Source of the DNA: a bacterium
Lineage (GTDB): Bacteria > RBG-13-61-14 > DATKZS01
Direction: 5' to 3'
Length of the DNA stretch: 64,000 nt
NCBI GenBank assembly: GCA_963674965.2
Contig: CAXXFL010000001.1
Span: 1,472,001-1,536,000, forward strand
Shown here: positions 16,971 to 32,991 of the stretch, piece after piece
Position numbering within the stretch: position 1 is the stretch's first letter
How the letters are laid out: each line of letters begins with the position of its first letter
Translations under genes and position numbers: made by a program
Notes under the pieces: model-generated
Database searches by the model: none
What the model saw: the letters and a program-made list of their open reading frames with translations, nothing else
What the model was told of the DNA's origin: nothing

Positions 16971-17018
16971 CTTGATATCCTCATGAAATTAATTAGTTAA
17001 GCGTTTTATCTCTCGCCG

Positions 17019-20009
17019 TCAGGCGCTCTTTTCAGCGTAATCGAGATGGGTCAGAAGATCGGTTCTTCCCACCAGTTCCTTCACGCTCTTCATTCCCAGG
17101 CGCCACAGTATCTCCTGAAGCTGGAGGCACCAGGAGTGAAAGAGGTTTATAAGCCTTTGCGATCCCCAGACAGAGTCGTAGGCCAGGGACAGCTCGCTGT
17201 CGGTGGTGGCTATGCCGCGGGGACAGCCTCTTCCGCTCTCGCAGTTGCCGCAGCGGATGCACTCGAGGGCCACCATCTCGGCCGTTCCGATCACGGCCCC
17301 GTCGGCGCCCAGGGCGATGGCCTTGGCCAGGTCCCAGGCCGTGCGTATGCCGCCCGAGGCGATAAGGGTCATCTTGTCCCTAATGCCCTCCTCGACCAGG
17401 AAGTTGTGGACCTTGGGTATGGCGTACTCGATGGGCATGGCGATGTTCTTCTTGGCGATGTCCGGCGCCGCGCCCGTGCCGCCGTAGCTGCCGTCGATGT
17501 GGATGATGTGGGCCCCCGCGTAGTAGCTTCCCACCGCCACCATGTCCACGTCGGTGGGCGTGCTGACCTTGACCGACACCAGGGCTTTCGGGTTAACGTG
17601 CTTGATCCAGTCCACGTGTTTCTTGTGGTCCTCGACCGAGTAGACCGAGTGGAAGGGGAAAGGCGAGAACAGGGCGCTGCCCTCGACGGCCTCCCTCATT
17701 TTGGCCACCGCCGGGGTGACCTTGTCCCCCAGAAGGTGGCCGCCCAGGCCCGGCTTGGCGCCCTGGGCGTACTTGAACTCGACTATCTTCACCCGCTGGA
17801 TCGTGTCCTCCCTGACCCCGAAAAGACCGGTGGCCACCTGGGTGATCACGTTGTCGTCATAATGCTTGAGTGCGTCTGGATAGCCGCCCTCCCCGGTGCA
17901 GGTGAAGGAGTTGAAAGCCTTCCAGGCCCGGGCCCGGCTGACCATGGTCGCCAGACTGATCGAGCCGAAGCTCATGCCCCCGCCGTAAACCGGGAAGCCG
18001 ATGGACACCTCGGGGCGGCCGTCGTCGCCTCTCCGGTTGAGAGGTATCTCGAGGTCCACGTCCTCGGGCTTGAAACCGGGACCGGAAGACCCCTCGGGGA
18101 AAACCAGGTCGATACGGTCGAACCCTCCGCCCGACTGGCCCACCTTGTACTCGAGGCCGGAGTCTTTGGGCGGCAAGCCCGTCTCGGCCTGGAGCCAGGT
18201 GGCGGAGATGAGGTCCGCCGTCCAGCGCGGGTCGCCGAAGGTTTTCCAAAGCGGGTTTTCTCCAACCCAGATGGCCGACTCGGGACAGGCGTCCACGCAA
18301 AGCGAGCCTAGTTCCCGGCAGGTAGAGGCCCCCCGGCAAAGGTGCTCCTTGGGCCGGAGAAGCCGGCCGGCCTCGAATACCAGGGCCTCGTATTTGCACG
18401 CCTCGACGCATTTGCCGCACTCGGTGCATTTATCGTTTACCACCACGCGGTACTTGGCCAGGTAATTTCTATAACGAGAGCGGCAAAAGCTCGCGAAGGC
18501 CTCGGCGCCCTTGTATTTCCAAGCCTCGATGGCGGGCGGCTCGGGCGCGGGAGGTTCCTTTTTCGACTCCTGGCGGGTCTTGGCGTCCCATCCGGGGTTC
18601 CCGGAGGGAGGATCGTAGTGGTCCCGCTTTCCGAAGATGGGCGCGAAGCTCTCGTTCTCGAGGTCCTTGAAGAACATGGCCCTGCCGACCTCGCCCCTGA
18701 GTCTCCTGACCTCGCGAAGGCCCATGGCCCCCATGACCTCGATAAGCTGGCTGTGCCAGGACCCCAAAAGGTTCACTATCCTTTGGGCGCCCCAGTTCTC
18801 GTCCATTTCCCCGAGAGTGACCGGGCACTCGGCCTGTTCCTCACAGTCCACGCACATGCGGCACTCGAGGGCAACGATGGGCGCCAGCTCGACGGCCGCC
18901 GCGTCAACCCCGCAGATGATGATCTTGGCCAGGTGCTCGGCCAGGGCTATCCCGCCGGTCAGTATCAAGCTGACCGACCCGCGGGCGTTGTCCTCGACCA
19001 GCCGAAGATGTATCTCACGCGTCATGTCGATAACGAACTCTTCTTCTTTCTCGCCAAAGCCCTTGCCCTTGGGGGTAGCGTGAAGATGGATAACGTCGGC
19101 CCCGCCCGAGGCCAAAGCCGAAGCCCTGTCCGCGGCCTTCTCGTCCAGCTCGAGCCTGATCGACACGACCATGCCGGGATGGGCTTCCTTGATCTTCGCG
19201 GCCTCATCGAGTACGCCGTCCGAGTAAAGAAGCTCGGCCATGCGCGCTCCCGCCAGGTCGGCCGCGTCGTCCCGGGCCGGATCGAAGCGCACGATCAGGC
19301 GGTCTTTCAAGTCCGACAGCGCGCCCCCGGCCTCGGCCGCGGTCGCCACCGCCAACGAGCCCAGCTTGCCGGCGGCGATGGCCATGGCCCTTCTCGCGCT
19401 CTCGCCCAGATGCCGGGACTGAGGGTCCGGCGGCGCGTCGATGACGGCGGGAAAGGAAATCGCGCAAAGGGGAGGCGGGTCCTGGGCCAGGTTGCCCTTC
19501 TCGTCAAAGGACAGGCGCCCGGGCTTTCTTCCCAGCTCGACCAGGGTCGAGATATACTCGCGGCCGTGGATGCCGTCGCGGGTGGGCCGCACGATCTCGG
19601 ACATGTCGGTCCACATCCTGTCGAAACCCGGCCCGCAAAAGGGCCCCCTGTAGCCGGCGCCGGAGACGGGAATCTTGCCCGTGCCCGCCTGTTTCCAGAC
19701 GCGGTCGATAATATCGGGGGTCCAGTAGTCGTCGCCCAGTCTTTCCCATCTGGGATTTAGGGAGCGGGAGAATATGTTGTTCTTGCATTCCTGCACGCAC
19801 CTCATGCAGTTAATGCACATGTTGTCTCCCGTGTCCTGCATCTGGAGGGGATCGAAGGATTTTTTTCTGTAAACTCCGTAGACGCAGGCCGTGTACTTAA
19901 CGCATCTTCTGCATCCGTAACACCTGGTGATCTCGAAGCTCGCGTACTTCGAGATGGGCGAGAACCGGGGAGGAGCCTCTTTAACGCTGACATGATACTT
20001 CTTTGGCAT
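17019..20009 (-). CDS. Glutamate synthase-type FMN/Fe-S subunit with two tandem ferredoxin + FMN-barrel modules
   Basis: C-half has MSFGSIS, TGEGG, QVATGLFGV, KYAQGAKPGLGGHL, SGGIRT, CIRCGNC...C. N-half has CYGCRRC, CINCMRCVQEC, TGGI..AEHLAK, CRMCVDC, MGAMGLREVRRLRG. Confidence 0.88.
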   Translation of the reverse strand: MPKKYHVSVKEAPPRFSPISKYASFEITRCYGCRRCVKYTACVYGVYRKKSFDPLQMQDTGDNMCINCMRCVQECKNNIFSRSLNPRWERLGDDYWTPDIIDRVWKQAGTGKIPVSGAGYRGPFCGPGFDRMWTDMSEIVRPTRDGIHGREYISTLVELGRKPGRLSFDEKGNLAQDPPPLCAISFPAVIDAPPDPQSRHLGESARRAMAIAAGKLGSLAVATAAEAGGALSDLKDRLIVRFDPARDDAADLAGARMAELLYSDGVLDEAAKIKEAHPGMVVSIRLELDEKAADRASALASGGADVIHLHATPKGKGFGEKEEEFVIDMTREIHLRLVEDNARGSVSLILTGGIALAEHLAKIIICGVDAAAVELAPIVALECRMCVDCEEQAECPVTLGEMDENWGAQRIVNLLGSWHSQLIEVMGAMGLREVRRLRGEVGRAMFFKDLENESFAPIFGKRDHYDPPSGNPGWDAKTRQESKKEPPAPEPPAIEAWKYKGAEAFASFCRSRYRNYLAKYRVVVNDKCTECGKCVEACKYEALVFEAGRLLRPKEHLCRGASTCRELGSLCVDACPESAIWVGENPLWKTFGDPRWTADLISATWLQAETGLPPKDSGLEYKVGQSGGGFDRIDLVFPEGSSGPGFKPEDVDLEIPLNRRGDDGRPEVSIGFPVYGGGMSFGSISLATMVSRARAWKAFNSFTCTGEGGYPDALKHYDDNVITQVATGLFGVREDTIQRVKIVEFKYAQGAKPGLGGHLLGDKVTPAVAKMREAVEGSALFSPFPFHSVYSVEDHKKHVDWIKHVNPKALVSVKVSTPTDVDMVAVGSYYAGAHIIHIDGSYGGTGAAPDIAKKNIAMPIEYAIPKVHNFLVEEGIRDKMTLIASGGIRTAWDLAKAIALGADGAVIGTAEMVALECIRCGNCESGRGCPRGIATTDSELSLAYDSVWGSQRLINLFHSWCLQLQEILWRLGMKSVKELVGRTDLLTHLDYAEKSA

Positions 20010-20060
20010 TTTACCTCACCTGACCGTTGTTATTTTATTAACGCGGTGTTTTTCCGCGCG

Positions 20061-20504
20061 TTAGTCTTTCTTCTTCATCGGGCTGGGACCTACCTCGGCT
20101 ACGGCCGTTGCCCTTTTGCCGGCGATATCGAGGAGGTCGTCCATGGAAAGGCCGCTTCCCCTGGTCAAACCCACCCGGTCGGGACCGAACCCGATCTCGG
20201 CCAGCCGGTCCTTTACGTACTGGACCCTGGCCTTCTCCTTGGTGGCCCCTCCCAACATCCTGCATGCCTCGGGCGGACAGGTGACGACCTCGATTCCGTC
20301 CGCCCCCAGCTCGAGTATCCGGACCATGTGCCCGATCTCGATCTTGCTCGAGCAGGGCATAACGATCAGCTTGGCCTTGGCCCCGCCCGTCTTCCTGACC
20401 GCGTCCATCAATTTGACGTCCTTTTTGACGCAGTTCTGGCAGTACATGACAACGATCTCGGGCTCGAAGTCCAAGGCCGCTTTTTTAGCGCCTTTTTTCG
20501 TCAT
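20061..20504 (-). CDS. MvhD/FlpD-family iron-sulfur subunit
   Basis: IVVMYC..C, MPCSSKI, GADG...TC....C, L.EIG....RV, VGPSP match the MvhD pattern. Start after the GAGAGGAAGG RBS. Confidence 0.85.
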   Translation of the reverse strand: MTKKGAKKAALDFEPEIVVMYCQNCVKKDVKLMDAVRKTGGAKAKLIVMPCSSKIEIGHMVRILELGADGIEVVTCPPEACRMLGGATKEKARVQYVKDRLAEIGFGPDRVGLTRGSGLSMDDLLDIAGKRATAVAEVGPSPMKKKD

Positions 20505-20602
20505 TTCCTTCCTCTCAAATCCACTATTGATAACGTTTGCGGGCCGTAATATTTTTCCCCGGCCCCGCATGTCTCGCGTTGCCGCCCGCGCCTAATAGTC
20601 CC

Positions 20603-21274
20603 TTAAAGTCCGAAAAAATTCGCGAAAATGGCCTGACCGAGCCGATAGATTGCCGGCTCCAGTTCCTGGAATTCATTTAGAATGCGATCTTTTCTCCGGG
20701 AAGACGCGAACCAATTTTTTAGTATACCATAGTTAACCTCAGGGTGAAATTGTATTGCCAGGGCGTTTTTATAGCGGAAAGCCTGGCTGATTTGCCCGCC
20801 GCTCGACGCGGCCAGGACCCTCGATCCGGGAGGAGGAACGAAGCAGTCCCGGTGCCACTGGAAAGCCTTGAATTTCAAATCGAGTCCATGCAAATATTTG
20901 TCCCTTTCGCCGTCCCCGGTTAACTCGACGTCGAAAAATCCTATTTCCGTGACCGGAGACTCCTTGACCTCGCCCCCCAGGGCCTTGGCTATCATTTGAG
21001 CGCCAAGGCAGACTCCCAGTACGGGAGTTCCGCTCTCGACCGCCCTTCTTAAAAATTCCTCCTCCTTAACCAGGAAGGGAAAAATGTCGGCCTGGTGGAC
21101 GTTCATGTCACCGCCCATGGAGGCGATCGAGTCGAAACCATTAACTCCGCCGGGCAGCTCGTCGCCCGCGTAGGGTTTTTTCACGACCACGCTCGCCTTA
21201 TTCCTTTTCAGAAAATTTCCGAGTTCTCCCGGTCCGTCCGGCTCGTCGTGAAGGATGATTAACGACCTGTGCAT
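20603..21274 (-). CDS. Class I glutamine amidotransferase (GMP-synthase-like GATase1)
   Basis: MGGDM, GVCLGAQ nucleophile, QWHRD and QFHPE triad motifs. Confidence 0.88.
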   Translation of the reverse strand: MHRSLIILHDEPDGPGELGNFLKRNKASVVVKKPYAGDELPGGVNGFDSIASMGGDMNVHQADIFPFLVKEEEFLRRAVESGTPVLGVCLGAQMIAKALGGEVKESPVTEIGFFDVELTGDGERDKYLHGLDLKFKAFQWHRDCFVPPPGSRVLAASSGGQISQAFRYKNALAIQFHPEVNYGILKNWFASSRRKDRILNEFQELEPAIYRLGQAIFANFFGL

Positions 21275-21287
21275 CCCATGTCCCGGC

Positions 21288-22997
21288 TTACTTGGGTCGG
21301 TATCGATTGGTGATGGGAAGCCGCCTGTCCTTTCCGAAAGCCTTGGGAGTGATCTTGACGCCGGGCGGGGCCTGTCTTCTTTTATACTCGTTGCGGTCCA
21401 CCATGCGGACGACCTCGAGTACGCGGCCAAGGTCGAAGCCTTTTCGAGCGATATCCCTCGGGGCCAGGTCCTCCTCGACGTAAAGCTCGAGTATACCGTC
21501 GAGCTCGTCGTATGGCGGCAAAGAGTCCTCATCCTTCTGGTCGGCGCGAAGCTCCGCGCTGGGCGGCCTTTCTATTACGCTCAGCGGAATGACCTCGGCG
21601 CCGGCTTTTTCGTTCACGAGCCTGGACAGCCCATATACCAGGGTCTTGGGCACGTCCTTGATGGCCGCGAAGCCGCCGGCCATGTCGCCGTAGAGGGTCG
21701 CGTAACCGACGGCCATCTCGCTTTTGTTGCCCGTGGTCAATACCAGCCAGCCGAAGCGGTTGCTGAGAGCCATAAGAATATTGCCCCGGACGCGGGCCTG
21801 GAGGTTTTCCGCCTCGACGCCGGGCGGTCCTTTTCCGAACTCCCGAGACAGCCCTTCCCCGTAGGCCTTGACCATGGGCTCGATGGGTACCTCGATATAC
21901 TTGATTCCCAGGTTCCTGGCCAGCAGACCGGCGTCGGAAAAAGTCCCGTCCGAGGTATAGCGGGATGGCATGGTCACGCCGACGACCTTGTCCGCGCCAA
22001 GCGCGTCCCGCGCGACGGCCGCGGTAAGGGACGAGTCGATGCCGCCCGACAAACCAATAAGCACCTTATCGAACCCGTTTTTTACAACGTAATCTCGGAC
22101 CCCGACTACCAGCGCCTGATAGACTTCCTCCTCGGTAGCCATCTCGGGAGCCAGGGACGGGAAGGTTTTTATGGTCCTCGAGATCCCGGAGGTCCTCTCG
22201 GATATCAGGATGAAGGGATGATCGCCGGGAGGGTCGTATTTTGCTAAATGAGCGTAGGAAGCCACCATGAGGTCCGTAATAAGGAGGTCTTCCTCGAAGC
22301 GTCTGGCCCGGGCGAACAACTCTCCATCCGGCCCCAGGGCCATGCTGGTCCCGTCGAAGACCAACTCGTCCTGGCCCCCCACTAAATTAGCGTAGAACAG
22401 ACACGCTCCGCTGGCGCGGCAGAACCTTTCAAATATCCGGGTCCTTTGCCTCAGCTTGCCCGCGTGAAAAGGAGAGGCGCTGAGGTTTATCACGCCGGCC
22501 GCGGATGAATCCCGGGCCGTTCTTTCAGCCCCGGACCCCTCGATCCAGACGTCCTCGCAAATGGTCACGGCCAGGCGGACGCCGTTGACCGTTATTACCA
22601 GGCCCTCGGTCCCGGGGGTGAAATATCTTCTCTCGTCGAAGACCCCGTAATTGGGAAGCTCGTTCTTGAAATAATAATCGACAATGGCGCCGTCCCTGAT
22701 CACTACGGCCGCGTTTTTCAAAGAGCCGTCCGCCATAACGGGCGCTCCCACTATGGCGGTAATATCTTTTACTTCTTTCGCCAGGGCCTCGAGCTTTTCC
22801 CCGCAATCCCTTATGAACGCGGGTTTTAGCAGCAGGTCCTCCGGCGGGTATCCGGCTAGAGCCAACTCCGGGACCGACGCGAGGTCGGCCCCGGCTTGCG
22901 CGGACTTTTTAATAGAGTCGGCTATCTTTTTCGCGTTTTGTTCCAGGTCCCCCACGGTAAGGTTTATTTGAGCCTGGGCTATTCTTATGGACTTCAA
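21288..22997 (-). CDS. nadE: Glutamine-dependent NAD+ synthetase
   Basis: Nitrilase domain (PEL..AGYPPEDL, LPNYGVFDE, ICED) plus synthetase domain (GLSGGIDS, ENLQAR, GNKSE, GYATLYGD, PSAEL, EYKRRQ). Confidence 0.97.
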   Translation of the reverse strand: MKSIRIAQAQINLTVGDLEQNAKKIADSIKKSAQAGADLASVPELALAGYPPEDLLLKPAFIRDCGEKLEALAKEVKDITAIVGAPVMADGSLKNAAVVIRDGAIVDYYFKNELPNYGVFDERRYFTPGTEGLVITVNGVRLAVTICEDVWIEGSGAERTARDSSAAGVINLSASPFHAGKLRQRTRIFERFCRASGACLFYANLVGGQDELVFDGTSMALGPDGELFARARRFEEDLLITDLMVASYAHLAKYDPPGDHPFILISERTSGISRTIKTFPSLAPEMATEEEVYQALVVGVRDYVVKNGFDKVLIGLSGGIDSSLTAAVARDALGADKVVGVTMPSRYTSDGTFSDAGLLARNLGIKYIEVPIEPMVKAYGEGLSREFGKGPPGVEAENLQARVRGNILMALSNRFGWLVLTTGNKSEMAVGYATLYGDMAGGFAAIKDVPKTLVYGLSRLVNEKAGAEVIPLSVIERPPSAELRADQKDEDSLPPYDELDGILELYVEEDLAPRDIARKGFDLGRVLEVVRMVDRNEYKRRQAPPGVKITPKAFGKDRRLPITNRYRPK

Positions 22998-23033: not shown

Positions 23034-24362
23034 TCAGAGTATGGGCAGATAGTTATCGAGCTCGAATTTACTCACGTGAATCCTGAAGCGGTCCCATTCG
23101 ATTTTCTTGTTCTCGATGAACTTCTCGAATATATGGTCGCCCAGGGCCTCCCTGACCAGCGCGCTGTTCTCGGTGACCTCGATGGCCTCGCCCAGGCTCC
23201 CGGGCAGGGACTCGATACCCGCTTCCTCCCTGGCCTTGGGCGACATCTCGAAGATGTCCTCCTCGACCGGATCGGGCAGCTCGTATCCCTCCTTGACGCC
23301 CTTGAGGCCGGCGGCCAGCATCACGGTAAAGGCGAGGTAGGGGTTGCAGGCCGGGTCCGGGCAGCGCACTTCCATCCTGGTGGCCTTTTCCTTGCCCGGC
23401 TTGTACATGGGAACTCTGACCAGGGCCGAGCGGTTGCGCCTGGCCCAGGCCACGTAAACCGGGGCCTCGTAGCCCGGTACCAGCCTCTTGTAGGAGTTGA
23501 CCCACTGGGCGATGACCAGGCAAATCTCGCGGGCGTGCTTGAGGACGCCCGCGATGTAGGCCTTGCCCTCCTTGGACAGGTTGTACTGATCGCTCGAGTC
23601 GAAGAAGGCGTTCTTGCTTCCCTTAAAGAGGGACTGGTGCGTATGCATTCCCGACCCGTTTTCGCCGAAGATGGGCTTGGGCATGAAGGTGGCGTAGACG
23701 CCGTGCTTTTGCGCGATCTCCTTGACCACCAGGCGATAGGTCATGGCGGCGTCGGCCATCTTGAGTCCCTCCATGTAGCGCAGGTCGATCTCGTGCTGGG
23801 AGGGCGCGACCTCATGGTGGCTGTACTCGACGGCGATGCCCAGGCTTTGCAGGGCCAGGATGGTGTCGCGGCGCAGGTCGCTGGCCGCGTCCAGGGGCGT
23901 CAAGTCGAAGTATCCGCCCTCGTCCAGGACCTCGGTGCCTTTATTGTCCTTGAAGTAAAAGTACTCGAGCTCGGGCCCGACGTACATGGTATAGCCGTCG
24001 TCGGCCGCTTTCTTGAGCTGCCTCTTCAGGGCGTAGCGGGGATCGCCGGCGTAAGGCGTGCCGTCGGGCTGAAGAACGTCGCAGAACATCCTGGCCACGG
24101 CGTACTCCTGGGGCCGCCAGGGCAGGATTTGAAAGGTCGAGGGGTCCGGCATGGCTATCATGTCGCTCTCGTGGATGCGGGCGAAACCCTCGATCGAGCT
24201 GCCGTCAAAGCCCATTCCCTCCTCCATGCCCACCTCGAGTTCATCGGCGGAGATGGCGAAGCTCTTGAGCATGCCAAGGACGTCGGTAAACCAGAAACGT
24301 ATGAATTTTACGTTTTTATCCTTGACCATTTTCAATACGGCTTCCTTGTTCATGTCCGACAT
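23034..24362 (-). CDS. glnA: Glutamine synthetase type I (GSI-alpha length, 442 aa)
   Basis: FDGSSIEG, HHEVAPSQHEI, ATFMPKP, NGSGMH, NSYKRLVPGYEAP, NRSALVR, EVRCPDPACNPY. Confidence 0.97.
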   Translation of the reverse strand: MSDMNKEAVLKMVKDKNVKFIRFWFTDVLGMLKSFAISADELEVGMEEGMGFDGSSIEGFARIHESDMIAMPDPSTFQILPWRPQEYAVARMFCDVLQPDGTPYAGDPRYALKRQLKKAADDGYTMYVGPELEYFYFKDNKGTEVLDEGGYFDLTPLDAASDLRRDTILALQSLGIAVEYSHHEVAPSQHEIDLRYMEGLKMADAAMTYRLVVKEIAQKHGVYATFMPKPIFGENGSGMHTHQSLFKGSKNAFFDSSDQYNLSKEGKAYIAGVLKHAREICLVIAQWVNSYKRLVPGYEAPVYVAWARRNRSALVRVPMYKPGKEKATRMEVRCPDPACNPYLAFTVMLAAGLKGVKEGYELPDPVEEDIFEMSPKAREEAGIESLPGSLGEAIEVTENSALVREALGDHIFEKFIENKKIEWDRFRIHVSKFELDNYLPIL

Positions 24363-24456
24363 TTTTTATTTCCTCCTTAAAATTTCCTTTGCTTTTTGAG
24401 GCCTCCGGCGAAAACCCCATGGGCCTCTTTTATTCGTTAAATCTTGAACGTCTTAA

Positions 24457-24472
24457 TTCAACCATCGTGCCA
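24457..24472 (-). promoter_or_regulatory. sigma54 -24/-12 promoter upstream of glnA
   Basis: Minus strand TGGCACGATGGTTGAA: consensus -24 box, with TTGA instead of TTGC at -12. Confidence 0.75.
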
Positions 24473-24549
24473 GTTCGTCAATAAAAATATAAAATCCATT
24501 TATAACCAAGCCTTACGGCGCCAGGCTTGAATTCGGCGGTCTGATCATC

Positions 24550-24595
24550 CTACATATTTGTAGGTTCACGATCGGGCGATCCTACAAATATGTAT
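24550..24595. promoter_or_regulatory. Tandem palindromic activator sites upstream of the glnA promoter
   Basis: CTACATATTTGTAG (24550-24563) and CTACAAATATGTAT (24582-24595), 32 bp apart. Confidence 0.75.
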
Positions 24596-24600
24596 TTATC

Positions 24601-24942
24601 TTAGCCTATGGCCTGGGCGCCCATCTCGCCCGTCCGTATTCGCATGCAGTCCTCGAGGTCGAACACGAATATTTTCCCGTCACCGATCTCGCCCGTTCTC
24701 GCGCCCTTCCTGATGGCGTCGAGCGTGGGCTGGAGAAAGGGGTCGGTAACGGCGATCTCGATCTTGACCTTCTTGAGGAGATTGCCCATTTCCTCCATGC
24801 CCCTGTAGATGGTGGTAATGCCCTGTTGTCTGCCGCATCCCAGGACGGGCGTAACCGTTATCAGGTTCACCTGCGCCGCTTTCAGTTCCTCCCGTACCTC
24901 GTCCAGCATATGGGGCTGTATAACCGCGATAATGTACTTCAT
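24601..24942 (-). CDS. glnK: PII nitrogen regulatory protein (GlnK-like, amt-linked), copy 2
   Basis: G.GRQ.G...YRG T-loop, [25 protein letters not shown]; directly downstream of amt. Confidence 0.93.
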
Positions 24943-24953
24943 CTTTCCCCTCC

Positions 24954-26186
24954 TCACTCGAGGACCGTATAGCCCGCTTCCCGGTGCTGGCTGATATCGA
25001 GTCCTACAATTTCGTCTTTTTTCGTCACCCGCATCCCGATGACGGCGTCGACCAGCTTATAAAGCACGAAGGTCATAACCGCGGCGTAGGCGATGGTGGC
25101 CAGGACCGAGACGGCCTGGACGCCGAACTGGTGGAAGTTGCCGAAGAGAAGACCGTCGGTCCCGCCGACCGATTTCTGGGCGAATATGCCCGTGGCCAGG
25201 GCGCCCCAGACGCCGCCGACGCCGTGGACGCCGAACACGTCCAAGGTGTCGTCGTAGCCGAGCCGGGGTTTTATCACGGCCACGGCCACGAACCCGAGGG
25301 CGCTCGATCCCGCCCCTATTGGAATGGCCGCCATGGGGCCCACGAAGCCGCAGGCCGGGGTGATGGCCACCAGCCCGGCCACGGCCCCGGTGGCGGCCCC
25401 CAGCATGGTGGGCGAGCCGTTATGTTTCCACTCGATAAGGGCCCAGGTCAGGCCCGCGGCGGCGGTCGATATATTGGTGGTGACGAAGGCGTTGGCCGCG
25501 GCCCCGTCGGCGGCCAGGGCGCTGCCGGCGTTGAAGCCGAACCATCCGAACCACAGGACCGAGGCGCCCAGCACCACGAAGGGCAGGTGGTGGGGGGTAA
25601 AGGGACCTCCCTTGTAACCCTCCCGCTTTCCAATAAGGAGGGCCATGACCAGGGCGGCCACGCCCGCGTTGATGTGCACCACCGTGCCCCCGGCGAAGTC
25701 CAGGGCGCCCAGATTCCGCATCCAGCCCCCCACGCCCCAAACCCAGTGACAGACAGGGTCGTAAACCAGGGTGGCCCAGATCACCATGAAGACGAGGAAA
25801 CCGGAAAACTTGATCCGCTCGGCGAAGGCGCCAATGATCAGGGCGGGAGTGATCACGGCGAACATGCCCTGGAAAGCCATGAAGGCCAGGTGAGGTATGG
25901 TGGTCCCGTAATCGGGCGAAGGTTCCATCCCGACCCCGCTCAGGCCGAGGAAATTAAGGCCTCCTATTAAGCCGCCAAGCGAGTTGGCGCCGAACGAAAG
26001 CGAGTACCCCAGTATGACCCATTGCAGAGTGATGACGCAGATGAGGATGAAGCACTGCATAAGGACGGAAAGGAAATTTTTCCTTCTTACCAGTCCTCCG
26101 TAAAAGAACGCCAGGCCCGGCGTCATGAACAGCACAAGGGCCGCCGACATGAGCACGAACGCGGTGTCTCCACCGTTTACTTCCAT
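24954..26186 (-). CDS. amt: Ammonium transporter, copy 2
   Basis: [59 protein letters not shown]. Start after the AAGGAGG RBS. Confidence 0.96.
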
Positions 26187-26190
26187 TTTC

Positions 26191-26293
26191 TTGCCTCCTT
26201 GATCGATATGCGGGGACCGGACTCCCGGAAACCCGATGGGACGGCCGGTTTTAACCCTGGAGTTTCCACCGACCGTCCCGATCAAGGAGGCAA
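26191..26293. repeat. 103-bp element bounded by a perfect 15-bp inverted repeat that includes the amt RBS
   Basis: TTGCCTCCTTGATCG (26191-26205) and CGATCAAGGAGGCAA (26279-26293); internal 12-bp stem 26238-26249/26268-26279. Confidence 0.85.
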
Positions 26294-26304
26294 TCGCCAT
26301 GCCG
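26289..26304 (-). promoter_or_regulatory. sigma54 -24/-12 promoter upstream of amt copy 2
   Basis: Minus strand CGGCATGGCGATTGCC (GG-N10-GC). Confidence 0.65.
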
Positions 26305-26334
26305 ACGGCACGACCTTTTTTAATTATTTAAATA

Positions 26335-26347
26335 TATCAGCGCTTTA
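26335..26347 (+). promoter_or_regulatory. Possible IHF site between activator sites and sigma54 promoter
   Basis: TATCAGCGCTTTA matches WATCARNNNNTTR, preceded by an AT-rich tract. Confidence 0.45.
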
Positions 26348-26382
26348 TCGTTATATAAGGCCTCCGACTCAATATTTTATAG

Positions 26383-26427
26383 CTACATATTTGTGGTTAA
26401 TCATAGTATATAACCACATTTTAGTAG
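26383..26427. promoter_or_regulatory. Tandem palindromic activator sites upstream of amt copy 2
   Basis: CTACATATTTGTGG (26383-26396) and CCACATTTTAGTAG (26414-26427), 31 bp apart. Confidence 0.7.
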
Positions 26428-26430
26428 TTT

Positions 26431-26772
26431 CTAGCCTATGGCTTCCCCTCCTCTCTCGCCGGTCCTTATCCTTATGCACTCGGTGAGGTCGGTGACGAAT
26501 ATCTTGCCGTCCCCAATCTCGCCGGTCCTGGCCCCTTTGATGATGGCCTCGATGGTGGGCTCGACGTAGTCCTCGTTCACGGCTATCTCCATCCTGAGTT
26601 TCTTGAGAAGGTTGATCTCGGTTTTTACGCCGCGATAGGACTTGGTGTATCCTCCCTGCTGGCCGCAGCCCAGGGCGTTGGTTACGGACATCTTGGATAT
26701 CTGGGCGTCGAAAAGGGTCCTTTTCACGTCCTCCAATCTTTCCGGCTGTATATAGGCCACAATCAGTTTCAT
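26431..26772 (-). CDS. glnK: PII nitrogen regulatory protein (GlnK-like, amt-linked), copy 1
   Basis: G.GQQGG...[38 protein letters not shown]. Confidence 0.93.
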
Positions 26773-26809
26773 TTCATACCTCCTTATTGAAAATCACCTT
26801 TTCGCCTAA

Positions 26810-28174
26810 TTACTGCGTGGTGAAAATCTGGAAACCGGAATAGGCCTCCATGCCGTGTTCCTCGAGGTCCAGGCCCCGGATTTCCTCCTCTTTCGAGACG
26901 CGAAGGCCCACGATCTTTTTGATGGCGAAGAACATGATAAAAGCGGTTATGCCCACCCAGGCGAAGACGCCGATCACGCCGACGAGCTGGATACCGAACT
27001 GTCCCAGTCCGCCGCCGAAGAACAGCCCGTTAACCGGGTCGCCGCCCGCGGCCACCGCGTATTTGGCCTGGGCGAAAAGTCCCACGCTGAGGGTCCCGAA
27101 GGCCCCGCACACGCCGTGCACGCTGACGGCTCCGACGGGGTCGTCTATTTTGAGGACCTTGTCGATGAACTCGACGGACAGGACCACCAGGACGCCGGCG
27201 ATCATGCCGATGAGCACGGCGCTTCCCGGCCCGACCACCGCGCAGGGGGCCGTGATCGCCACCAGTCCGGCCAGGGCGCCGTTGAGGCTCATGGAGGCGT
27301 CGGGTTTTCCGAACCTTATCCAGGCCGTGATCATGGCCGTGATGGCCCCGCCGGCCGCGGCCAGGTTGGTGGTGACGGCGATGAGTCCTATCCCGAGGTT
27401 GGTGCCCGCCGTGGTCGATCCGGGGTTGAACCCGAACCATCCGAACCAGAGGATAAACACTCCCAAGGCCGCCAGGGGTATGTTATGGCCGGGGATGGCT
27501 TTGGAAATCTTTTTGCCGCCCCCGTTCTCGACGTATTTGCCCAGCCTCGGGCCCAGTATTATGGCCCCGACCAGGGCAGCCCATCCGCCCACCGAGTGAA
27601 CGACGGTGGAGCCGGCGAAGTCGATCATGCCCAGCTTCGAGAGCCAGCCGCCGCCCCAAATCCAGTGGCCCACCACCGGATAAATGACGGCGGTGACGAT
27701 TACGCTATAAATAAGGTACGAGGAAAACTTGGTCCTTTCCGCCATGCCGCCGCTGACGATGGTGGCCGCCGTGGCCGCGAAGACCGTCTGGAAAAGCCAG
27801 AAGGTCAACTGCCACATGCCGCCTTCCTTGGTGGGGTCGCCGGCGCTGAGGAAAAAGCCGTCCGTGCCGAAAAGCCCTCCGGCGCTGGCGCCGAACATGA
27901 TACCGAACCCCACCGCCCAGTAAATGATCGAGCCAACGGAAAAGTCCATAAGGTTCTTCATGATGATGTTGCAGGCGTTCTTGGCCCGGGTGAAACCCGT
28001 CTCGACCATGGCGAAGCCCGCCTGCATGAAAAAGACCAGGAACGCCGCCACCAGGGTCCATACCGTGTCGAGCGCCGCGGCGTTCGAGCTGGGCGTGGGT
28101 CCCTCGTCGGCGAGAGCAAGCCGGCCGATAAGGAACGCGGCTATGGTAACTACCGGTATTATATAGCGTCTCAT
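26810..28174 (-). CDS. amt: Ammonium transporter, copy 1 (with N-terminal signal peptide)
   Basis: [67 protein letters not shown]. Confidence 0.96.
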   Translation of the reverse strand: MRRYIIPVVTIAAFLIGRLALADEGPTPSSNAAALDTVWTLVAAFLVFFMQAGFAMVETGFTRAKNACNIIMKNLMDFSVGSIIYWAVGFGIMFGASAGGLFGTDGFFLSAGDPTKEGGMWQLTFWLFQTVFAATAATIVSGGMAERTKFSSYLIYSVIVTAVIYPVVGHWIWGGGWLSKLGMIDFAGSTVVHSVGGWAALVGAIILGPRLGKYVENGGGKKISKAIPGHNIPLAALGVFILWFGWFGFNPGSTTAGTNLGIGLIAVTTNLAAAGGAITAMITAWIRFGKPDASMSLNGALAGLVAITAPCAVVGPGSAVLIGMIAGVLVVLSVEFIDKVLKIDDPVGAVSVHGVCGAFGTLSVGLFAQAKYAVAAGGDPVNGLFFGGGLGQFGIQLVGVIGVFAWVGITAFIMFFAIKKIVGLRVSKEEEIRGLDLEEHGMEAYSGFQIFTTQ

Positions 28175-28284
28175 TTTTATCCTCCCTGAAATGGGCGCGA
28201 GTCTCGGGCGCGGCTTCAGCCGATACTCTCGCTCGGCGTGAGGCCCTCTTATCGCGAGCCCATGTTTTATAAATTATTTGTCGA

Positions 28285-29154
28285 TTAGATTTCCCCGGAC
28301 CATCCCAGGCTGATCATGAAAAGGCCGGCCTGGTCTTGCAGGTCAAGGTCCGTGCCCACGTTGCCCAGGTCGATGGCGTCCTTGGCGTCCTCATTGAGCA
28401 GTCCCACGTAGCTGTAGGAGGGCGTGATGGAGAAGCCCATGGGCAGTCCAACTGGAAGGGCCACGCCCACGGAATAGTCGTGGAAACCATCCTTGTCCTC
28501 GAAGCCTTGTACGCCCATCGAGTCGAAACCCCAGTAGAACTGGCTGAACTTCTCGTTGGCGTATCCCACGTGGCCGGACAAATCCAGGCCCAGGGTCACG
28601 TCGCCCTCCTCGATGAGGGAAAAGGAATGGCCCAGGTCGAGGCTCAAGTAGCCCGCTCCGTCGGCCTGGTCCTGGTCCCAGTAAAAAGTCAGGCCCGGCG
28701 AGGAGGGAACGTCAAAGGCCACGCCCGTGAAAATCTCCGTGCTGGCGGCCAGCTTATTGGGGTTGTCGCCAATGGGTCCTCCCGGGTGGGGGAAGGTGTA
28801 GTTGATCACGCCCAGGCTAATCTCGGCCGGTCCCAAGGCGCGGGAATAGCTCGCCGTGTAGTCTATCTCGGTCAGTTGTCCCGACTGGTCCCCGTAACCC
28901 ACGAAGGGAGACGCGCCCCAGTCGGTCAGGTCCATGTTGCCCCAGGCGTTGAGGCTGAAACCGCCGCCGGAAAGGGTGATGGACGGTTGGAGGACGGACT
29001 CCTCGTTCAGCGGTATGCCTCTCCACACGTAGCGGTCGCAATAAGAAACGTCCACTCCCACTTCGACCTTGGACTTGTCATCCGCCAGGGCGCCTGAAAG
29101 CGCCGACGCGCATAAAACCAGAGCCATGGCCAATCCCGATAACAACCTTTTCAT
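28285..29154 (-). CDS. Putative outer-membrane beta-barrel (TorF/Gcw_chp-like porin)
   Basis: Signal peptide, YVWRG...QPS, WG, EIDY..SY, G..NYTFP and alternating beta-strand pattern; sits at the head of amt-glnK, as known for this family. Confidence 0.7.
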   Translation of the reverse strand: MKRLLSGLAMALVLCASALSGALADDKSKVEVGVDVSYCDRYVWRGIPLNEESVLQPSITLSGGGFSLNAWGNMDLTDWGASPFVGYGDQSGQLTEIDYTASYSRALGPAEISLGVINYTFPHPGGPIGDNPNKLAASTEIFTGVAFDVPSSPGLTFYWDQDQADGAGYLSLDLGHSFSLIEEGDVTLGLDLSGHVGYANEKFSQFYWGFDSMGVQGFEDKDGFHDYSVGVALPVGLPMGFSITPSYSYVGLLNEDAKDAIDLGNVGTDLDLQDQAGLFMISLGWSGEI

Positions 29155-29195
29155 TTTCTACCTCCTTGAAAATAGTCAATTTGGAAGGGTTATTA

Positions 29196-29211
29196 ATCAA
29201 CCTTCGTGCCA
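29196..29211 (-). promoter_or_regulatory. sigma54 -24/-12 promoter upstream of porin-amt-glnK
   Basis: Minus strand TGGCACGAAGGTTGAT, 14/16 identical to the glnA promoter. Confidence 0.75.
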
Positions 29212-29310
29212 AGAGGCGAAAATATTTTATTCGATTTATAACATGCCGATTAATAGTGGATATTTAGAAAAGAAGCCCTATGGCCGGAAAGAGAACGGGA
29301 ATATATAAAT

Positions 29311-29354
29311 CTACATTAATGTGTGGATATCATGTTTATACTACATTTATGTAC
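29311..29354. promoter_or_regulatory. Tandem palindromic activator sites upstream of the porin promoter
   Basis: CTACATTAATGTGT (29311-29324) and CTACATTTATGTAC (29341-29354), 30 bp apart; the second overlaps the regulator's stop codon. Confidence 0.7.
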
Positions 29355-30900
29355 GGAATTGTTTGTAGTCGATCCCGTGCTTGGAAACGCGAAGGCCCAT
29401 GATCCGCTCGGTGATCCCGAGCTGTCGGGCGGCCTTGGCCATGTTTCCCCTCGCGCTTTTGAGGGCGTCCATGATAATGCTCTTTTCCACGCCGTCGATG
29501 GTCTCGGCCAGGGTTCCTTTTACCACCGTGTCCGAGGCCTCGGCCGTCTGCAGGGAAGGGGGAAGGTGGTGGCCGTGCATGACCTCGCCGTTGGTCAGGA
29601 GCACGGCTCGCTCGACGCAGTTCTCCAACTCGCGCACGTTCCCGGGCCAGTGGTAGGACATGAGCATGTCGATGGCCTCGCTCGAGATGCGCTTGATTTT
29701 CTTGTGCTCGTCCTTGGCGTATTTCTCGACGAAGTGGTCGGCAAGGAGCATGATGTCGGTTTTCCTTTCCCGGAGGGGCGGCATGAAGATGGGAAAAACG
29801 TTAAGCCGGTAATAAAGGTCCTGGCGGAAGGACCCCGCGGATATCAGTTCCTCGAGTTCCCTGTTGGTGGCGGCCACCACTCGGACGTTGGACCGGATGG
29901 TCTCGGACCCTCCGACCCTCTCGAACTCTTTTTCCTGGAGCACCCTAAGCAGCTTGACCTGAATGCTGGGGGACAGGTCGCCGATCTCGTCGAGAAAGAT
30001 GGTACCGCCCGAGGCCAGCTCGAACCTGCCCTTCCGCTGGGCGATGGCCCCGGTAAAGGCGCCCTTTTCATGGCCGAAAAGCTCGCTCTCGATCACGGTC
30101 TCGGGCAGGGCCGCCAGGTTGACCTTGACGAAGGGCTTCTTGGCCCGGGGGCTGTTGAAATGGATGGCGTGGGCCACCAGTTCCTTGCCCGTGCCGCTCT
30201 CGCCCCGAATCAGGACCGTGGCGTCGCTCCTGGATACCTGGGCGATGAGGTCGTAGACCGTCCTCATAGCCTTGCTGTTGCCGATGATGTTGGAAGGACG
30301 GAACCTGTCCTGCAGGACCTCCTGCAGCCTCTCGTTCTCCTCGAGAAGTTTCTGGCGCTCCTCCTCCGCCGCCTGGCGGAGACGGACGGCCTGGGCGATC
30401 ATGGAGGCGATAATCGAAAGAAGCCTTACGTCCTCCTCCAGGGACACCTTGTCGCTGAAAAGGCTGTCAACCGAGAGCGCCCCTATTGTCTCCTTGCCGA
30501 TCTTGATGGGAACGCAGATAAAGGAAAGGTCCTTTTTGCTCAGCTTGCCCCGAGCCCCCGTGCGGTTCAAGAAGGTGGGCTCCTCCGAGATGCTGGGCAC
30601 GACCATGGGCCGTCCCGTCTGCACCACCCTGCCCGTAACTCCCTCCCCGAGCTGGTAGCGGCCGCGCTGCTTCTGCGTGATCGAGAGACCGTAAGCCGCC
30701 TCGATGAAAATCTCGCCCGTCTTCCGGTTTAAAAGGCTCAAGGTGCCGCGGCGCATGTCCATGTGATCGGCCATGCCTTTAAGGACCATGCCCAACACGT
30801 CGCGAAGGTCGTAGCTTTCCCCCAGAATCCCGCTGATCTCGTACAGAAGTCCCAGCTCCTTTACCTCTCTTCTGACTTGATGTTTTTTTGCTTTGGCCAT
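29347..30900 (-). CDS. NifA-like sigma54 enhancer-binding protein (GAF-AAA+-Fis HTH)
   Basis: N-terminal GAF ([15 protein letters not shown]), [52 protein letters not shown]. Start at MAKAKK after AAAGGA. Confidence 0.93.
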
Positions 30901-30923
30901 GGCGGGTCCTTTCTTTAAATTTC

Positions 30924-30937
30924 CTACATAATTGTAA
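30924..30937. promoter_or_regulatory. Single copy of the same palindrome just upstream of the regulator (possible autoregulation)
   Basis: CTACATAATTGTAA, 24 bp upstream of the ATG. Confidence 0.55.
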
Positions 30938-31027: not shown

Positions 31028-32542
31028 TCAAATGGTTTGGCCGATATGGTCGGCCACGTGGGCGGCCAGGGCCATGATGGTGACCTGGGGATTGACGCCC
31101 GGCGAGTTGGGGAAGATCGAGGCGTCGGCGATGAATAGTCTCTCAATATCGTGGGACCGGCCATAAGAATCGACCACGCCTCTTTTCGGGTCCCCGCTCA
31201 TGCGGCAAGTACCGTTAGGATGGTTGCCAATGGGACTGAAGTCCTCGGCCTTTAAGTTCGCCTCCATGATAAGGCGGGCCTTGTCTCGCCGGTAAAGCTC
31301 GGACGGGACCTTGTGTATGCCGGGGCATATGTATTCGCAACCGGCCGCGAATAAAAGGTCGGCCGTGGCCTTCATGGAAATCTGCATGAGCCGGGCGTCC
31401 CGGTTGGTCATGTTATATATTATGGCGGGGCTCCAGCCGTTCTTCCGGGCCTTGACCGTTCCTTGAGTCTTGGCCCGGATCATGGCGCCCCATAAAACCA
31501 TGTTCTTGAGGCGGGCCATGCCGTCTTTGTGCCTTATCCCGAACCCGGGAAGACGAATACCGATAACGTCCGGCGGCGCCCAGGCGACCTCGATTATAAA
31601 GCCATCCTTCCTGAAGGCGTCGCAGCAGTAACCCTGGTTCACGCCGTCCCAGGCGTAAACGTCCTCCTTGAAAAACCCCACCATGCCCGTGGCCGTGTGG
31701 TTACAAAGGTTTCTTCCCACCAACCCCGAGGAGTTGGCCAGGTTGTTCTTCTGCAAAAGAACGGGGGTACCCATGGCCCCGCAGGCGATGACCGTGGCCC
31801 TGGCCCGGACCTCGACCGAGCTTCGCGACGGCTCGAGACTCTCCGGGTCGATCATGGTCCCGGTCACGCCCAGGGCCCGGCCGTTCCGAACCAGTATCTT
31901 TTCGATCCGGCAGTCGGTGACGAGCTCTCCCCCCAGCTCGAGGAACCGGGGAATAAAGCAGCGGTCCACGCTCATCTTGGCCCCGTCCACGCAGCCCGAC
32001 ATGCACACGCCGCAACCGCGGCAACCCCTCGAGTTGCGGTATATCTTCTCCCCTTTCCAGCCGATGTTCTCGCAGCCTCTTTGCATGAGCAGGTTGTTCA
32101 TGCCCAGATAATCGTCGTCCTCCTGGCTTATATTGGCGATTTCCTCCACTTCCTCGAAAAGGGGCGCGAGTCCCTCCGGTGTGAGACCCTCAAGCTTCTC
32201 CGTCTCGACCCACTCGTCCAGCACGTCGTCGGGCAGCCGGAAGCAGATGGCGGAATTGACCACCGTGGTCCCTCCCACCACCCGGGCCTGCAGGGTGGGA
32301 ATGACCATCTTGCCGCCCATGGCCCTCATGCCGCCGTCCCGGTATAGCTGGCGCATGGCCGCCCAGGAGTCGGTGGTGAACCGGTCGGGAGTGATCGGGC
32401 TTCCCTCCTCGATGATGACGACCGACTTGCCGGCCCGGGCCAGCCGATGGGCGCAGGAAGCCCCGCCCGCTCCCGTGCCCACCACCACGACGTCGCAATC
32501 GAGGCTCAGCTTTCCTTTTATATCCTTGAAGGTCCTGGTCAT
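31028..32542 (-). CDS. GMC-family FAD oxidoreductase
   Basis: [59 protein letters not shown]. Confidence 0.9.
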
Positions 32543-32991
32543 GAACCGGCCTCCTCGCATTTGAGATGGAAGTCCATTTTTTCGAGCACGAGCGGGTCGT
32601 TATAAAAGCCCAGGCCGATGATGGTCTTTAAAAGGACCACCACCATGCGCCGGTAGTAAAGGCGGGAGTCGGACCAGTCGTGAAGATATAACTCCTGCTC
32701 TTGGGGGGATAGGCGGGTGAAGCGCGAAAATCTTTGAATAAAAAGAAAAGGAGCCAGGTCGAAGGCCAGAAGGAGGGCCTTGATGCCAAGACGGGAACCG
32801 GAATCCAGGTCTCGAAGATACCTGGCAACGGCCTTGTAGGCGTCGGTCTCCTCGACGCTTACGTCGATAAGGCCCCCCGCGGGAATAAGACGCCCCGCCA
32901 GTTGCTCGATGATTTTGCCCACGCGCGGCCCCACGGCGGGATGGCCGCCGGGCAGGGTCACGTCGGCCGCGTACTCCCAGGCCCTTGACAT
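32539..32991 (-). CDS. Small partner of the GMC oxidoreductase (gluconate 2-dehydrogenase subunit 3-like)
   Basis: LIP.G..., RF..LSP..Q..YL..W, LK......FY; ATGA overlap with the GMC gene. Confidence 0.65.
   Translation of the reverse strand: MSRAWEYAADVTLPGGHPAVGPRVGKIIEQLAGRLIPAGGLIDVSVEETDAYKAVARYLRDLDSGSRLGIKALLLAFDLAPFLFIQRFSRFTRLSPQEQELYLHDWSDSRLYYRRMVVVLLKTIIGLGFYNDPLVLEKMDFHLKCEEAGS

Follow-up and report, generated by a model that had tools for sequence, protein, structure and literature searches.

How might a bacterium with no recognisable NtrC or GlnD match ammonium uptake and assimilation to its nitrogen supply? The question is raised by a 6.5-kb locus (positions 24457..30937) in a stretch of 64,000 nt, here called the window, from contig CAXXFL010000001.1 of a bacterium of the RBG-13-61-14 lineage (assembly GCA_963674965.2; genome 6.5 Mb, 97.6% complete, not closed, 59% GC). 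The locus joins a gene for a NifA-like regulator to genes for a putative porin, two ammonium transporters (amt), two PII proteins (glnK) and glutamine synthetase (GS; glnA), and its intergenic DNA carries copies of a palindrome, CTACA-N4-TGTAG. The regulator is probably a one-component activator that works through paired copies of this palindrome on three sigma-54 promoters of ammonium uptake and assimilation.

Palindromes and promoters of the locus

All seven palindromes proposed at this locus by an initial annotation of the sequence are present. A scan of the window with CTACANNNNTGTAG at up to one mismatch gave five matches (24550, 24582, 26383, 29341 and 30924) against 0.26 expected, a count reached in none of 100 shuffles, and two further copies with two mismatches each lie at 26414-26427 (minus strand CTACTAAAATGTGG) and 29311-29324 (CTACATTAATGTGT). 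The full core TAC-N6-GTA is found in four of the seven (24550, 24582, 29341 and 30924), and 26383, 26414 and 29311 have one core mismatch each. Six copies form three tandem pairs with spacings of 32, 31 and 30 bp, matching the 30-32 bp first reported, and each pair lies upstream of a sigma-54 box, for glnA, amt2-glnK2 and porin-amt1-glnK1, respectively. Measured from the start of the box to the center of the proximal site, the distances are 85, 85.5 and 107 bp; each distal site is another 30-32 bp away from the promoter. The seventh copy, as first described, stands just ahead of the regulator gene. The sites and boxes are as follows, with palindromes given without strand.

30924..30937: single palindrome CTACATAATTGTAA, probable autoregulatory operator, 24-37 nt upstream of the regulator ATG at 30900
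29341..29354: distal site of the porin-amt1-glnK1 promoter (putative enhancer), overlapping the regulator's stop codon
29311..29324: proximal site of the porin-amt1-glnK1 promoter (putative enhancer), two mismatches, 10.7 bits by weight matrix
29197..29211, minus strand: sigma-54 box TGGCACGAAGGTTGA, 107 bp from the proximal center; predicted transcription start near 29185
26414..26427: distal site of the amt2-glnK2 promoter (putative enhancer), two mismatches, just past the glnK1 stop
26383..26396: proximal site of the amt2-glnK2 promoter (putative enhancer), from the motif scan
26290..26304, minus strand: sigma-54 box CGGCATGGCGATTGC; predicted transcription start near 26278
24582..24595: distal site of the glnA promoter (putative enhancer), from the motif scan
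24550..24563: proximal site of the glnA promoter (putative enhancer), from the motif scan, with perfect palindrome arms
24458..24472, minus strand: sigma-54 box TGGCACGATGGTTGA, at -110 from the glnA ATG; predicted transcription start near 24446

A loose sigma-54 pattern is not enriched across the window (38 found, 46 expected), and trust in the three boxes comes from their position and conservation rather than from pattern enrichment. Within the 127-bp region upstream of the regulator gene no sigma-54 box was found, and a consensus scan flagged no sigma-70-like promoter there; a weak TTCATG-N16-TACAAT that overlaps the palindrome can be seen by eye.

The genome-wide scan that the initial annotation had suggested places five of 20 matches to CTACANNNNTGTAG (at most one mismatch, whole 6.5-Mb genome) within this 6.5-kb locus. 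With a weight matrix trained on other genomes, only two pairs at a spacing of 28-34 bp were found genome-wide, both of them here; the amt2 pair scores under the matrix threshold because each member has one core mismatch. Inspection of the 45 best single matrix matches genome-wide revealed no further regulon targets: none of the 11 genes flanking the nine top-scoring intergenic matches is a nitrogen gene, and the genes beside stray matches encode an EAL protein, histidine kinases, a radical-SAM protein, an HNH nuclease-like open reading frame (ORF) and others. Weak regulon sites could be missed in such a search, since the matrix demands a perfect core. The HNH ORF (130 aa, G000:C1:187486-187878, L268), which sits beside a stray high-scoring match and has a domain resembling the HNH of IscB/Cas9, is probably unrelated to the regulon.

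The regulator protein

29347..30900, minus strand: regulator gene, 517 aa, with GAF, sigma-54 interaction AAA+ (GAFTGA) and Fis-type helix-turn-helix (HTH) domains, from the translation and Pfam

The domains found by Pfam are GAF/GAF_2, Sigma54_activat (PF00158, 246.3 bits), AAA_lid_14 and HTH_8, and the GAFTGA loop can be read in the translation. There is neither a receiver domain, in whose place the GAF domain stands, nor a kinase partner. On this domain make-up the protein is a predicted one-component sigma-54 enhancer-binding protein (EBP), as the initial annotation had described it. No cysteine occurs in the first 128 residues and there is no inter-domain cysteine motif.

The protein scores 564.6 bits against the NifA model TIGR01817 (cut-off 528.85) and is the only one in the genome over that cut-off, the 27 further matches covering just the AAA+ domain. 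Its own match spans only profile positions 4-439 of 534 and ends short of the linker and HTH of NifA. Against the solved NifA 9qq6_C, the alignment of the GAF and AAA+ domains has E 2.7e-116 (residues 4-510), whereas the recognition helices differ (ITERIMGLR here, MTPRQIAYR in 9qq6_C). The GAF domain also matches that of Aquifex Nlh1 (4g3k; E 8e-29, residues 15-188).

Co-occurrence of sites and regulator

If the palindromes are operators of this regulator, the two might be expected to travel together. Forty genomes of relatives were compared, along with a wider scan of 80 loci, 78 of which were used for site density. Nine of the 40 relatives encode a protein 72-76% identical to the regulator, and in two of them (G001 and G011) the order regulator-porin-amt-glnK-glnA is kept together with the sites; nadE follows glnA in G001. 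Judging by record titles, the 80 loci come from Desulfomonilaceae, spirochaetes, Hydrogenedentota, PVC/planctomycetes, Schekmanbacteria, Syntrophorhabdaceae, Desulfocarbo, Acidobacteria, Verrucomicrobia and Desulfobacterales. Sites with at most one mismatch are densest in the 250 bp ahead of the regulator gene (1.2 per kb; 23 in 19 kb), followed by the 350 bp behind it (0.6 per kb; 17 in 28 kb), against a background of 0.016 per kb (13 in the remaining 818 kb) and a single site inside the regulator gene. Neighboring sites in relatives are 30-32 bp apart in 17 of 26 cases. The inner base varies, with CTACC-N4-GGTAG in Desulfocarbo-type genomes, and the family core is for this reason best written TAC-N6-GTA.

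The presence of the site follows the DNA-binding domain of the regulator. A full core stands beside the gene at 33 of the 37 loci, from several phyla, that share the regulator's recognition-helix pattern (HTH class A), at 12 of 37 loci of other HTH classes, there mostly as TTACA-N4-TGTAA, and near none of the four genes of a verrucomicrobial class (L087, L093, L096 and L104). In this last class the HTH differs at one recognition-helix position (Q) and no amt or glnA lies within 8 kb; this subclade may have changed its site or its targets. A second candidate correlation, between an HTH residue (ER-I or ER-L) and the inner site base A or C, showed a trend (58% against 21% A) and was rejected as confounded with GC content.

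Co-occurrence with orthologs, which the initial annotation had made a point of its proposal, extends to operons that are unlinked from the regulator gene. Seven pairs occur in four such amt or glnA loci of regulator-bearing genomes (G002, G003, G004 and the second contig of G035), and none in the 16 amt loci taken from 11 genomes that lack a close ortholog. This contrast supports the assignment and is no statistical proof, because the positive genomes are mostly kin.

The distance between pairs and promoters is conserved as well. In a survey of 70 pairs (same-HTH loci, relatives and the window), a sigma-54-like box lies within 230 bp of 46. The distance from the box to the center of the proximal site is 84-87 bp in 13 of these and 104-110 bp in 15 (28 of 46 together), with smaller groups near 129-142 bp and 163-164 bp. 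Steps of this kind, about two helical turns each, would be predicted for an activator that has to face the polymerase, and all three distances in the window belong to one or other of the two largest groups. The position of the box is also conserved at orthologous glnA promoters, at -107/-110 from the ATG (-107 in two relatives). Most pairs without a box sit upstream of the regulator gene itself; relatives have one or two sites there, as here, and no sigma-54 box, which suggests autoregulation from a promoter that would not depend on sigma-54. The anatomy of the locus, the conservation, the co-occurrence and the phasing are all computational observations.

Nitrogen control in the rest of the genome

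The genome's only GS gene, only two amt genes and only two PII genes sit at this locus, and the description of the regulon as self-contained is fair for that reason. An rpoN gene is present (TIGR02395, 466.6 bits). The absence of nif genes, first noted for the window, extends to the genome as far as nifH is concerned: the best match to the nifH family in the 97.6% complete assembly reaches 47.5 bits against a cut-off of 394.35, and the nine ortholog-bearing relatives have none.

No protein in the genome exceeds the curated cut-off for NtrC (best 499 against 558.6 bits), and the best candidate adjoins folD and is paired with an AtoS/ZraS-like kinase. Likewise no GlnD was found over the cut-off (best match 34 bits). 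Both PII proteins, and their relatives in a PII alignment, lack a tyrosine at the T-loop position that we take to be the one uridylylated in E. coli, and PII in this genome is probably not uridylylated. Independence from NtrBC, stated outright in the initial annotation, is best called likely rather than proven.

Relation to known regulators

The pairing of regulator and motif had been taken as uncharacterized, and here an earlier prediction has to be acknowledged. Kazakov et al. (2015, BMC Genomics; PMC4641369) computationally predicted the regulon of a one-component EBP, DVU1949, in Desulfovibrio vulgaris Hildenborough and other Desulfovibrionales. Its predicted targets are amtB-glnB-glnD, two GS genes, genes of the glutamate-synthase region and other nitrogen genes, with sigma-54 promoters, and its sites have the form TTACA-N4-TGTAA (for example GTTACATTTTTGTAAT and TTGACATTTCTGTAAG), one of them preceding the regulator's own operon (PMC4641369). 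The system described here resembles it in having a one-component EBP with GAFTGA, predicted ammonium-assimilation targets, sigma-54 promoters, a site at the regulator's own promoter, the ACA-N4-TGT geometry and the common TAC-N6-GTA core. It differs in the outer base of the site (C/G here, T/A for DVU1949), in its strict 30-32 bp pairs and in the position of the regulator gene, which is beside its targets here and in the ior operon there; the recognition helix of the ior-operon regulator is also different.

For the comparison of the regulator proteins, three other Desulfovibrionaceae genomes stood in for D. vulgaris. The exact 16-base DVU1952-promoter site occurs in at least three genomes of this family, and in those three the best match to the window protein, 46-47% identical over its full length, is encoded 1 to 3.5 kb downstream of the site, as the last gene of an operon of the DVU1952-iorA-iorB type. 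In one of them (G041) a hypothetical gene and iorA lie between the DVU1952-type site and the regulator, which is the operon described for DVU1949, and the regulator has the GAFTGA listed for DVU1949 (PMC4641369). This protein and the window protein are reciprocal best matches at 46%. The DNA-binding domain (DBD) table in supplementary file 2 of the same paper conflicts with this synteny (L260, L258, L259 and L303), since it labels the HTH of the ior-operon regulator DVU0569 and a NifA-like HTH DVU1949; either a shift in the rows of the table or a real difference between these genomes and D. vulgaris might account for this. An assignment of the best matches as DVU0569 orthologs, taken from that table, was overturned by the synteny and the GAFTGA loop. 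In a FastTree tree of 43 rows, which gave long-branch warnings, the ior-operon type groups with Desulfobacterales and Acidobacteria clades (support 99) and the window protein falls in a separate 15-row clade (support 99). The window protein is accordingly treated as a putative member of the DVU1949 family that shares its kind of regulon and belongs to another subclade.

In the same Desulfovibrionaceae genome (G041, L303 6538-6574) two copies of CTACATTTTCGTAG, 23 bp apart, stand just upstream of proA in a divergent intergenic region shared with the DVU1952-type site, and proline synthesis may be part of the regulon in that genome.

The geometry of the operator, also thought to be new for the NifA group, is in its core that of the AnfA site. 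Electrophoretic mobility shift assays and promoter mutagenesis in Rhodobacter capsulatus showed that the anfH sigma-54 promoter is preceded by two TAC-N6-GTA sites to which AnfA binds, both of them needed for full activation; the VnfA site is cited there as GTAC-N6-GTAC (Demtroder et al. 2020, PMC7294313). These proteins control alternative nitrogenases and have a cysteine motif in the GAF domain (PMC7294313). The present regulator shares with AnfA the GAF-AAA+-HTH architecture and the two TAC-N6-GTA dyads upstream of a sigma-54 promoter (full core in four of the seven sites), and differs from AnfA and VnfA in having no cysteine before residue 129 and in belonging to a genome without a nitrogenase reductase gene. 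With NifA it has in common GAF and AAA+ domains that align over their full length and a score above the equivalog cut-off, but not nif genes, TGT-N10-ACA at the targets, the recognition helix or an inter-domain cysteine motif.

In enterobacteria, NtrC acts at glnAp2 and glnK-amtB through paired enhancers upstream of sigma-54 promoters and has an operator at its own promoter. The regulator described here would do the same job at glnA and amt-glnK, with a GAF domain instead of a receiver, no kinase partner, a different site and no GlnD in the genome.

Two further GAF-type proteins may be informative. In Nlh1 of Aquifex aeolicus (GAF structures 4g3k and 4g3w) a GAF dimer and coiled-coil linker keep the ATPase inactive until ligand binds (PMC9866876); the similarity to the present regulator was assessed for the GAF domain only. 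EbpA of Leptospira interrogans, a functional parallel, is according to a review (PMC12655853) a GAF-type EBP that binds upstream of amtB and is needed for growth at low nitrogen, FhlA-like with two GAF domains. One Leptospirales genome gave only an AAA+-level match to the regulator. Literature searches found no experimental study of assimilation-type regulators of this family.

Alternative explanations

Several observations weigh against an activator acting through upstream sites at these three promoters. Two of the three sigma-54 boxes end in TTGA rather than TTGC at -12, a variant that recurs at orthologous promoters in relatives, and two of the seven palindromes carry two mismatches. Four of the 37 same-HTH loci have no full-core site near the gene, and the phyletic contrast overstates the independence of its positives, which are mostly kin. 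In three Desulfocarbo-type relatives (L072 about 12550, L111 about 12720 and L115 about 12600) a third palindrome lies in the glnA leader, about 25-30 nt downstream of the sigma-54 box, a position that a pure upstream-activator model does not explain. An additional NtrC-like response regulator may also act here, given that NtrC is called absent by a cut-off. Finally, binding, expression and transcription starts of the predicted regulon, together with activation, the sign of autoregulation and the signal, are for this organism and its clade predictions from sequence.

Some of these points would suit a different arrangement, in which the palindromes belong as operators to another nitrogen regulator acting in trans, such as a repressor, with the activator gene also under its control; the activator itself would then bind at other places or do without a specific site. 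Binding of the activator to the palindromes is a prediction, and the sites before regulator genes without sigma-54 boxes, like the third site downstream of the glnA promoter in three relatives, look repression-like. Such an arrangement is nonetheless unlikely: the presence of sites tracks the HTH class of the regulator (33 of 37 against 12 of 37 and none of four) and its presence in the genome (seven pairs in four loci against none in 16), the pairs stand at enhancer distances from sigma-54 boxes and in helical phase with them, and the sister regulator AnfA directly binds the same core (PMC7294313). We give far less weight still to a true nif-specific NifA, kept as a relic or serving a nitrogenase cluster missing from the assembly; the ammonium genes would in that case answer to one of the genome's 27 remaining sigma-54 activators. 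That many relatives are named NifA by NCBI and JGI, that the score exceeds the TIGR01817 cut-off (564.6 against 528.85 bits) and that the genome is 97.6% complete and not closed would favor it, but the profile match stops short of the linker and HTH, nifH-family matches in the genome are all at or below 47.5 bits with none in the nine ortholog-bearing relatives, and the regulator gene is syntenic with amt, glnK and glnA across phyla. TGT-N10-ACA, the upstream activating sequence of NifA, is absent from the locus and has one match in the 64 kb, at 55501; sites of NtrC type (consensus TGCACC-N5-GGTGCA) were likewise not found at the three promoters.

The intergenic DNA of the locus is AT-rich within a 59% GC genome, and it might be supposed that the palindromes match by chance in AT-rich sequence or are what is left of a repeat element. 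This has next to no probability, since no shuffle in 100 reaches the observed count and the motif, pair spacing and promoter distance recur in other phyla, and we regard a chance or repeat origin as already refuted by this conservation. An activator working through the paired palindromes is therefore the reading carried forward here.

Proposed mechanism and signal

Under this reading, dimers of the regulator would bind the CTACA-N4-TGTAG palindromes (family core TAC-N6-GTA), and the active ring would nucleate at two sites three helical turns apart on the same face of the helix, some 85 or 107 bp ahead of each -24/-12 box. When nitrogen is scarce the GAF domain would free the ATPase, and the ring could then open the three sigma-54 promoters of porin-amt1-glnK1, amt2-glnK2 and glnA(-nadE). 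Through the single site ahead of its own gene, where no box is found, the regulator would most likely control its own expression, probably negatively.

The GAF domain, which is of NifA type, would most likely respond either to 2-oxoglutarate as a bound ligand or to GlnK in its non-uridylylated form. There is precedent for both: 2-oxoglutarate binds the GAF domain of Azotobacter NifA, and GlnK acts on that of Herbaspirillum NifA (PMC9866876), while one abstract proposes unmodified PII as an inhibitor of Rhodopseudomonas AnfA. Given that the genome has no GlnD and that two glnK genes belong to the regulon, both routes seem plausible. A complex prediction for the GAF domain (residues 1-190) with a GlnK trimer scored 0.00 and returned no answer.

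A broader view may be entertained as a tentative suggestion, one that we think rather unlikely. In lineages without NtrBC and GlnD this single protein could be the whole nitrogen regulator, its GAF domain reading 2-oxoglutarate or unmodified PII directly. The clade would then be one of general ammonium-assimilation activators from which the nitrogenase regulators specialized later, with TAC-N6-GTA (AnfA, VnfA) the older site and the TGT-N10-ACA of NifA derived.

Genes of the locus

Every gene of the locus is on the minus strand. In transcription order, and with the regulator gene (given above) in second place, they are:

31028-32560, minus strand: GMC oxidoreductase, first in transcription order, ahead of the regulator
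28285..29154, minus strand: putative outer-membrane porin (Gcw_chp / TorF family), first gene of its operon; PF09694 35.8 bits, TIGR02001 below cut-off
26810..28174, minus strand: ammonium transporter amt1; TIGR00836 478.9 bits
26431..26772, minus strand: PII protein glnK1; profile search and PII alignment
24954..26186, minus strand: ammonium transporter amt2, revised start; TIGR00836 474.2 bits, match from residue 45 of the long ORF
24601..24957, minus strand: PII protein glnK2, likely start ATG 24942; profile search and PII alignment
23034..24362, minus strand: glutamine synthetase type I (glnA); TIGR00653 544 bits, single PF00120 match in the genome
21288..22997, minus strand: glutamine-dependent NAD+ synthase nadE; NF010588 715.4 bits

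The start of amt2 was moved because the listed one, ATG 26300, falls within the sigma-54 box at 26290-26304, and ATG 26186 fits both the family profile and the promoter. Preceded by an AAGGAGG ribosome-binding site, ATG 26186 is the likely true start, and automatic annotation may over-extend amt2 by 38 codons. Directly downstream of glnA, nadE is possibly co-transcribed with it, and the glnA-nadE order is kept in relatives. Homologs of the porin (30-48% identity) stand ahead of amt or after the regulator in several relatives (L042, L043-L045, L048, L072, L111 and L115), and a porin of this Gcw_chp/TorF type may be an outer-membrane channel dedicated to ammonium uptake.

A row of four genes follows nadE (window 14361-21532, minus strand):

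20603-21532, minus strand: class-I glutamine amidotransferase
20061-20570, minus strand: FlpD/MvhD-like protein
17019-20009, minus strand: 996-aa protein with ferredoxin and Glu_synthase FMN domains
14361-16970, minus strand: 869-aa protein with GATase_6 and GXGXG domains

Taken together, these genes resemble a split glutamate synthase of archaeal style, attached to the GS cluster. Neither the palindrome nor a clear sigma-54 box was seen ahead of them.

Significance

The concept of such a system is known, the kind of regulon having been predicted in 2015 and the type of site demonstrated for the sister regulator AnfA. What this locus adds is a real and tidy example of it, and for an argument made wholly by computation the assignment of sites to regulator is strong. 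The HTH region of this regulator recurs in at least 948 database proteins, many of them named 'nif-specific activator NifA'. For genomes like this one that name is misleading because there is no nitrogenase, and it would wrongly suggest diazotrophy. This genome would offer a clean experimental case, with a single regulator for three promoters and seven sites, no GS, Amt or PII genes outside the locus and no GlnD. More widely, and judging by record titles, many lineages of anaerobes and sediment bacteria, including Desulfomonilaceae, spirochaetes, Hydrogenedentota, planctomycetes and others, appear to use this system as their principal alternative to NtrBC in assimilating ammonium.

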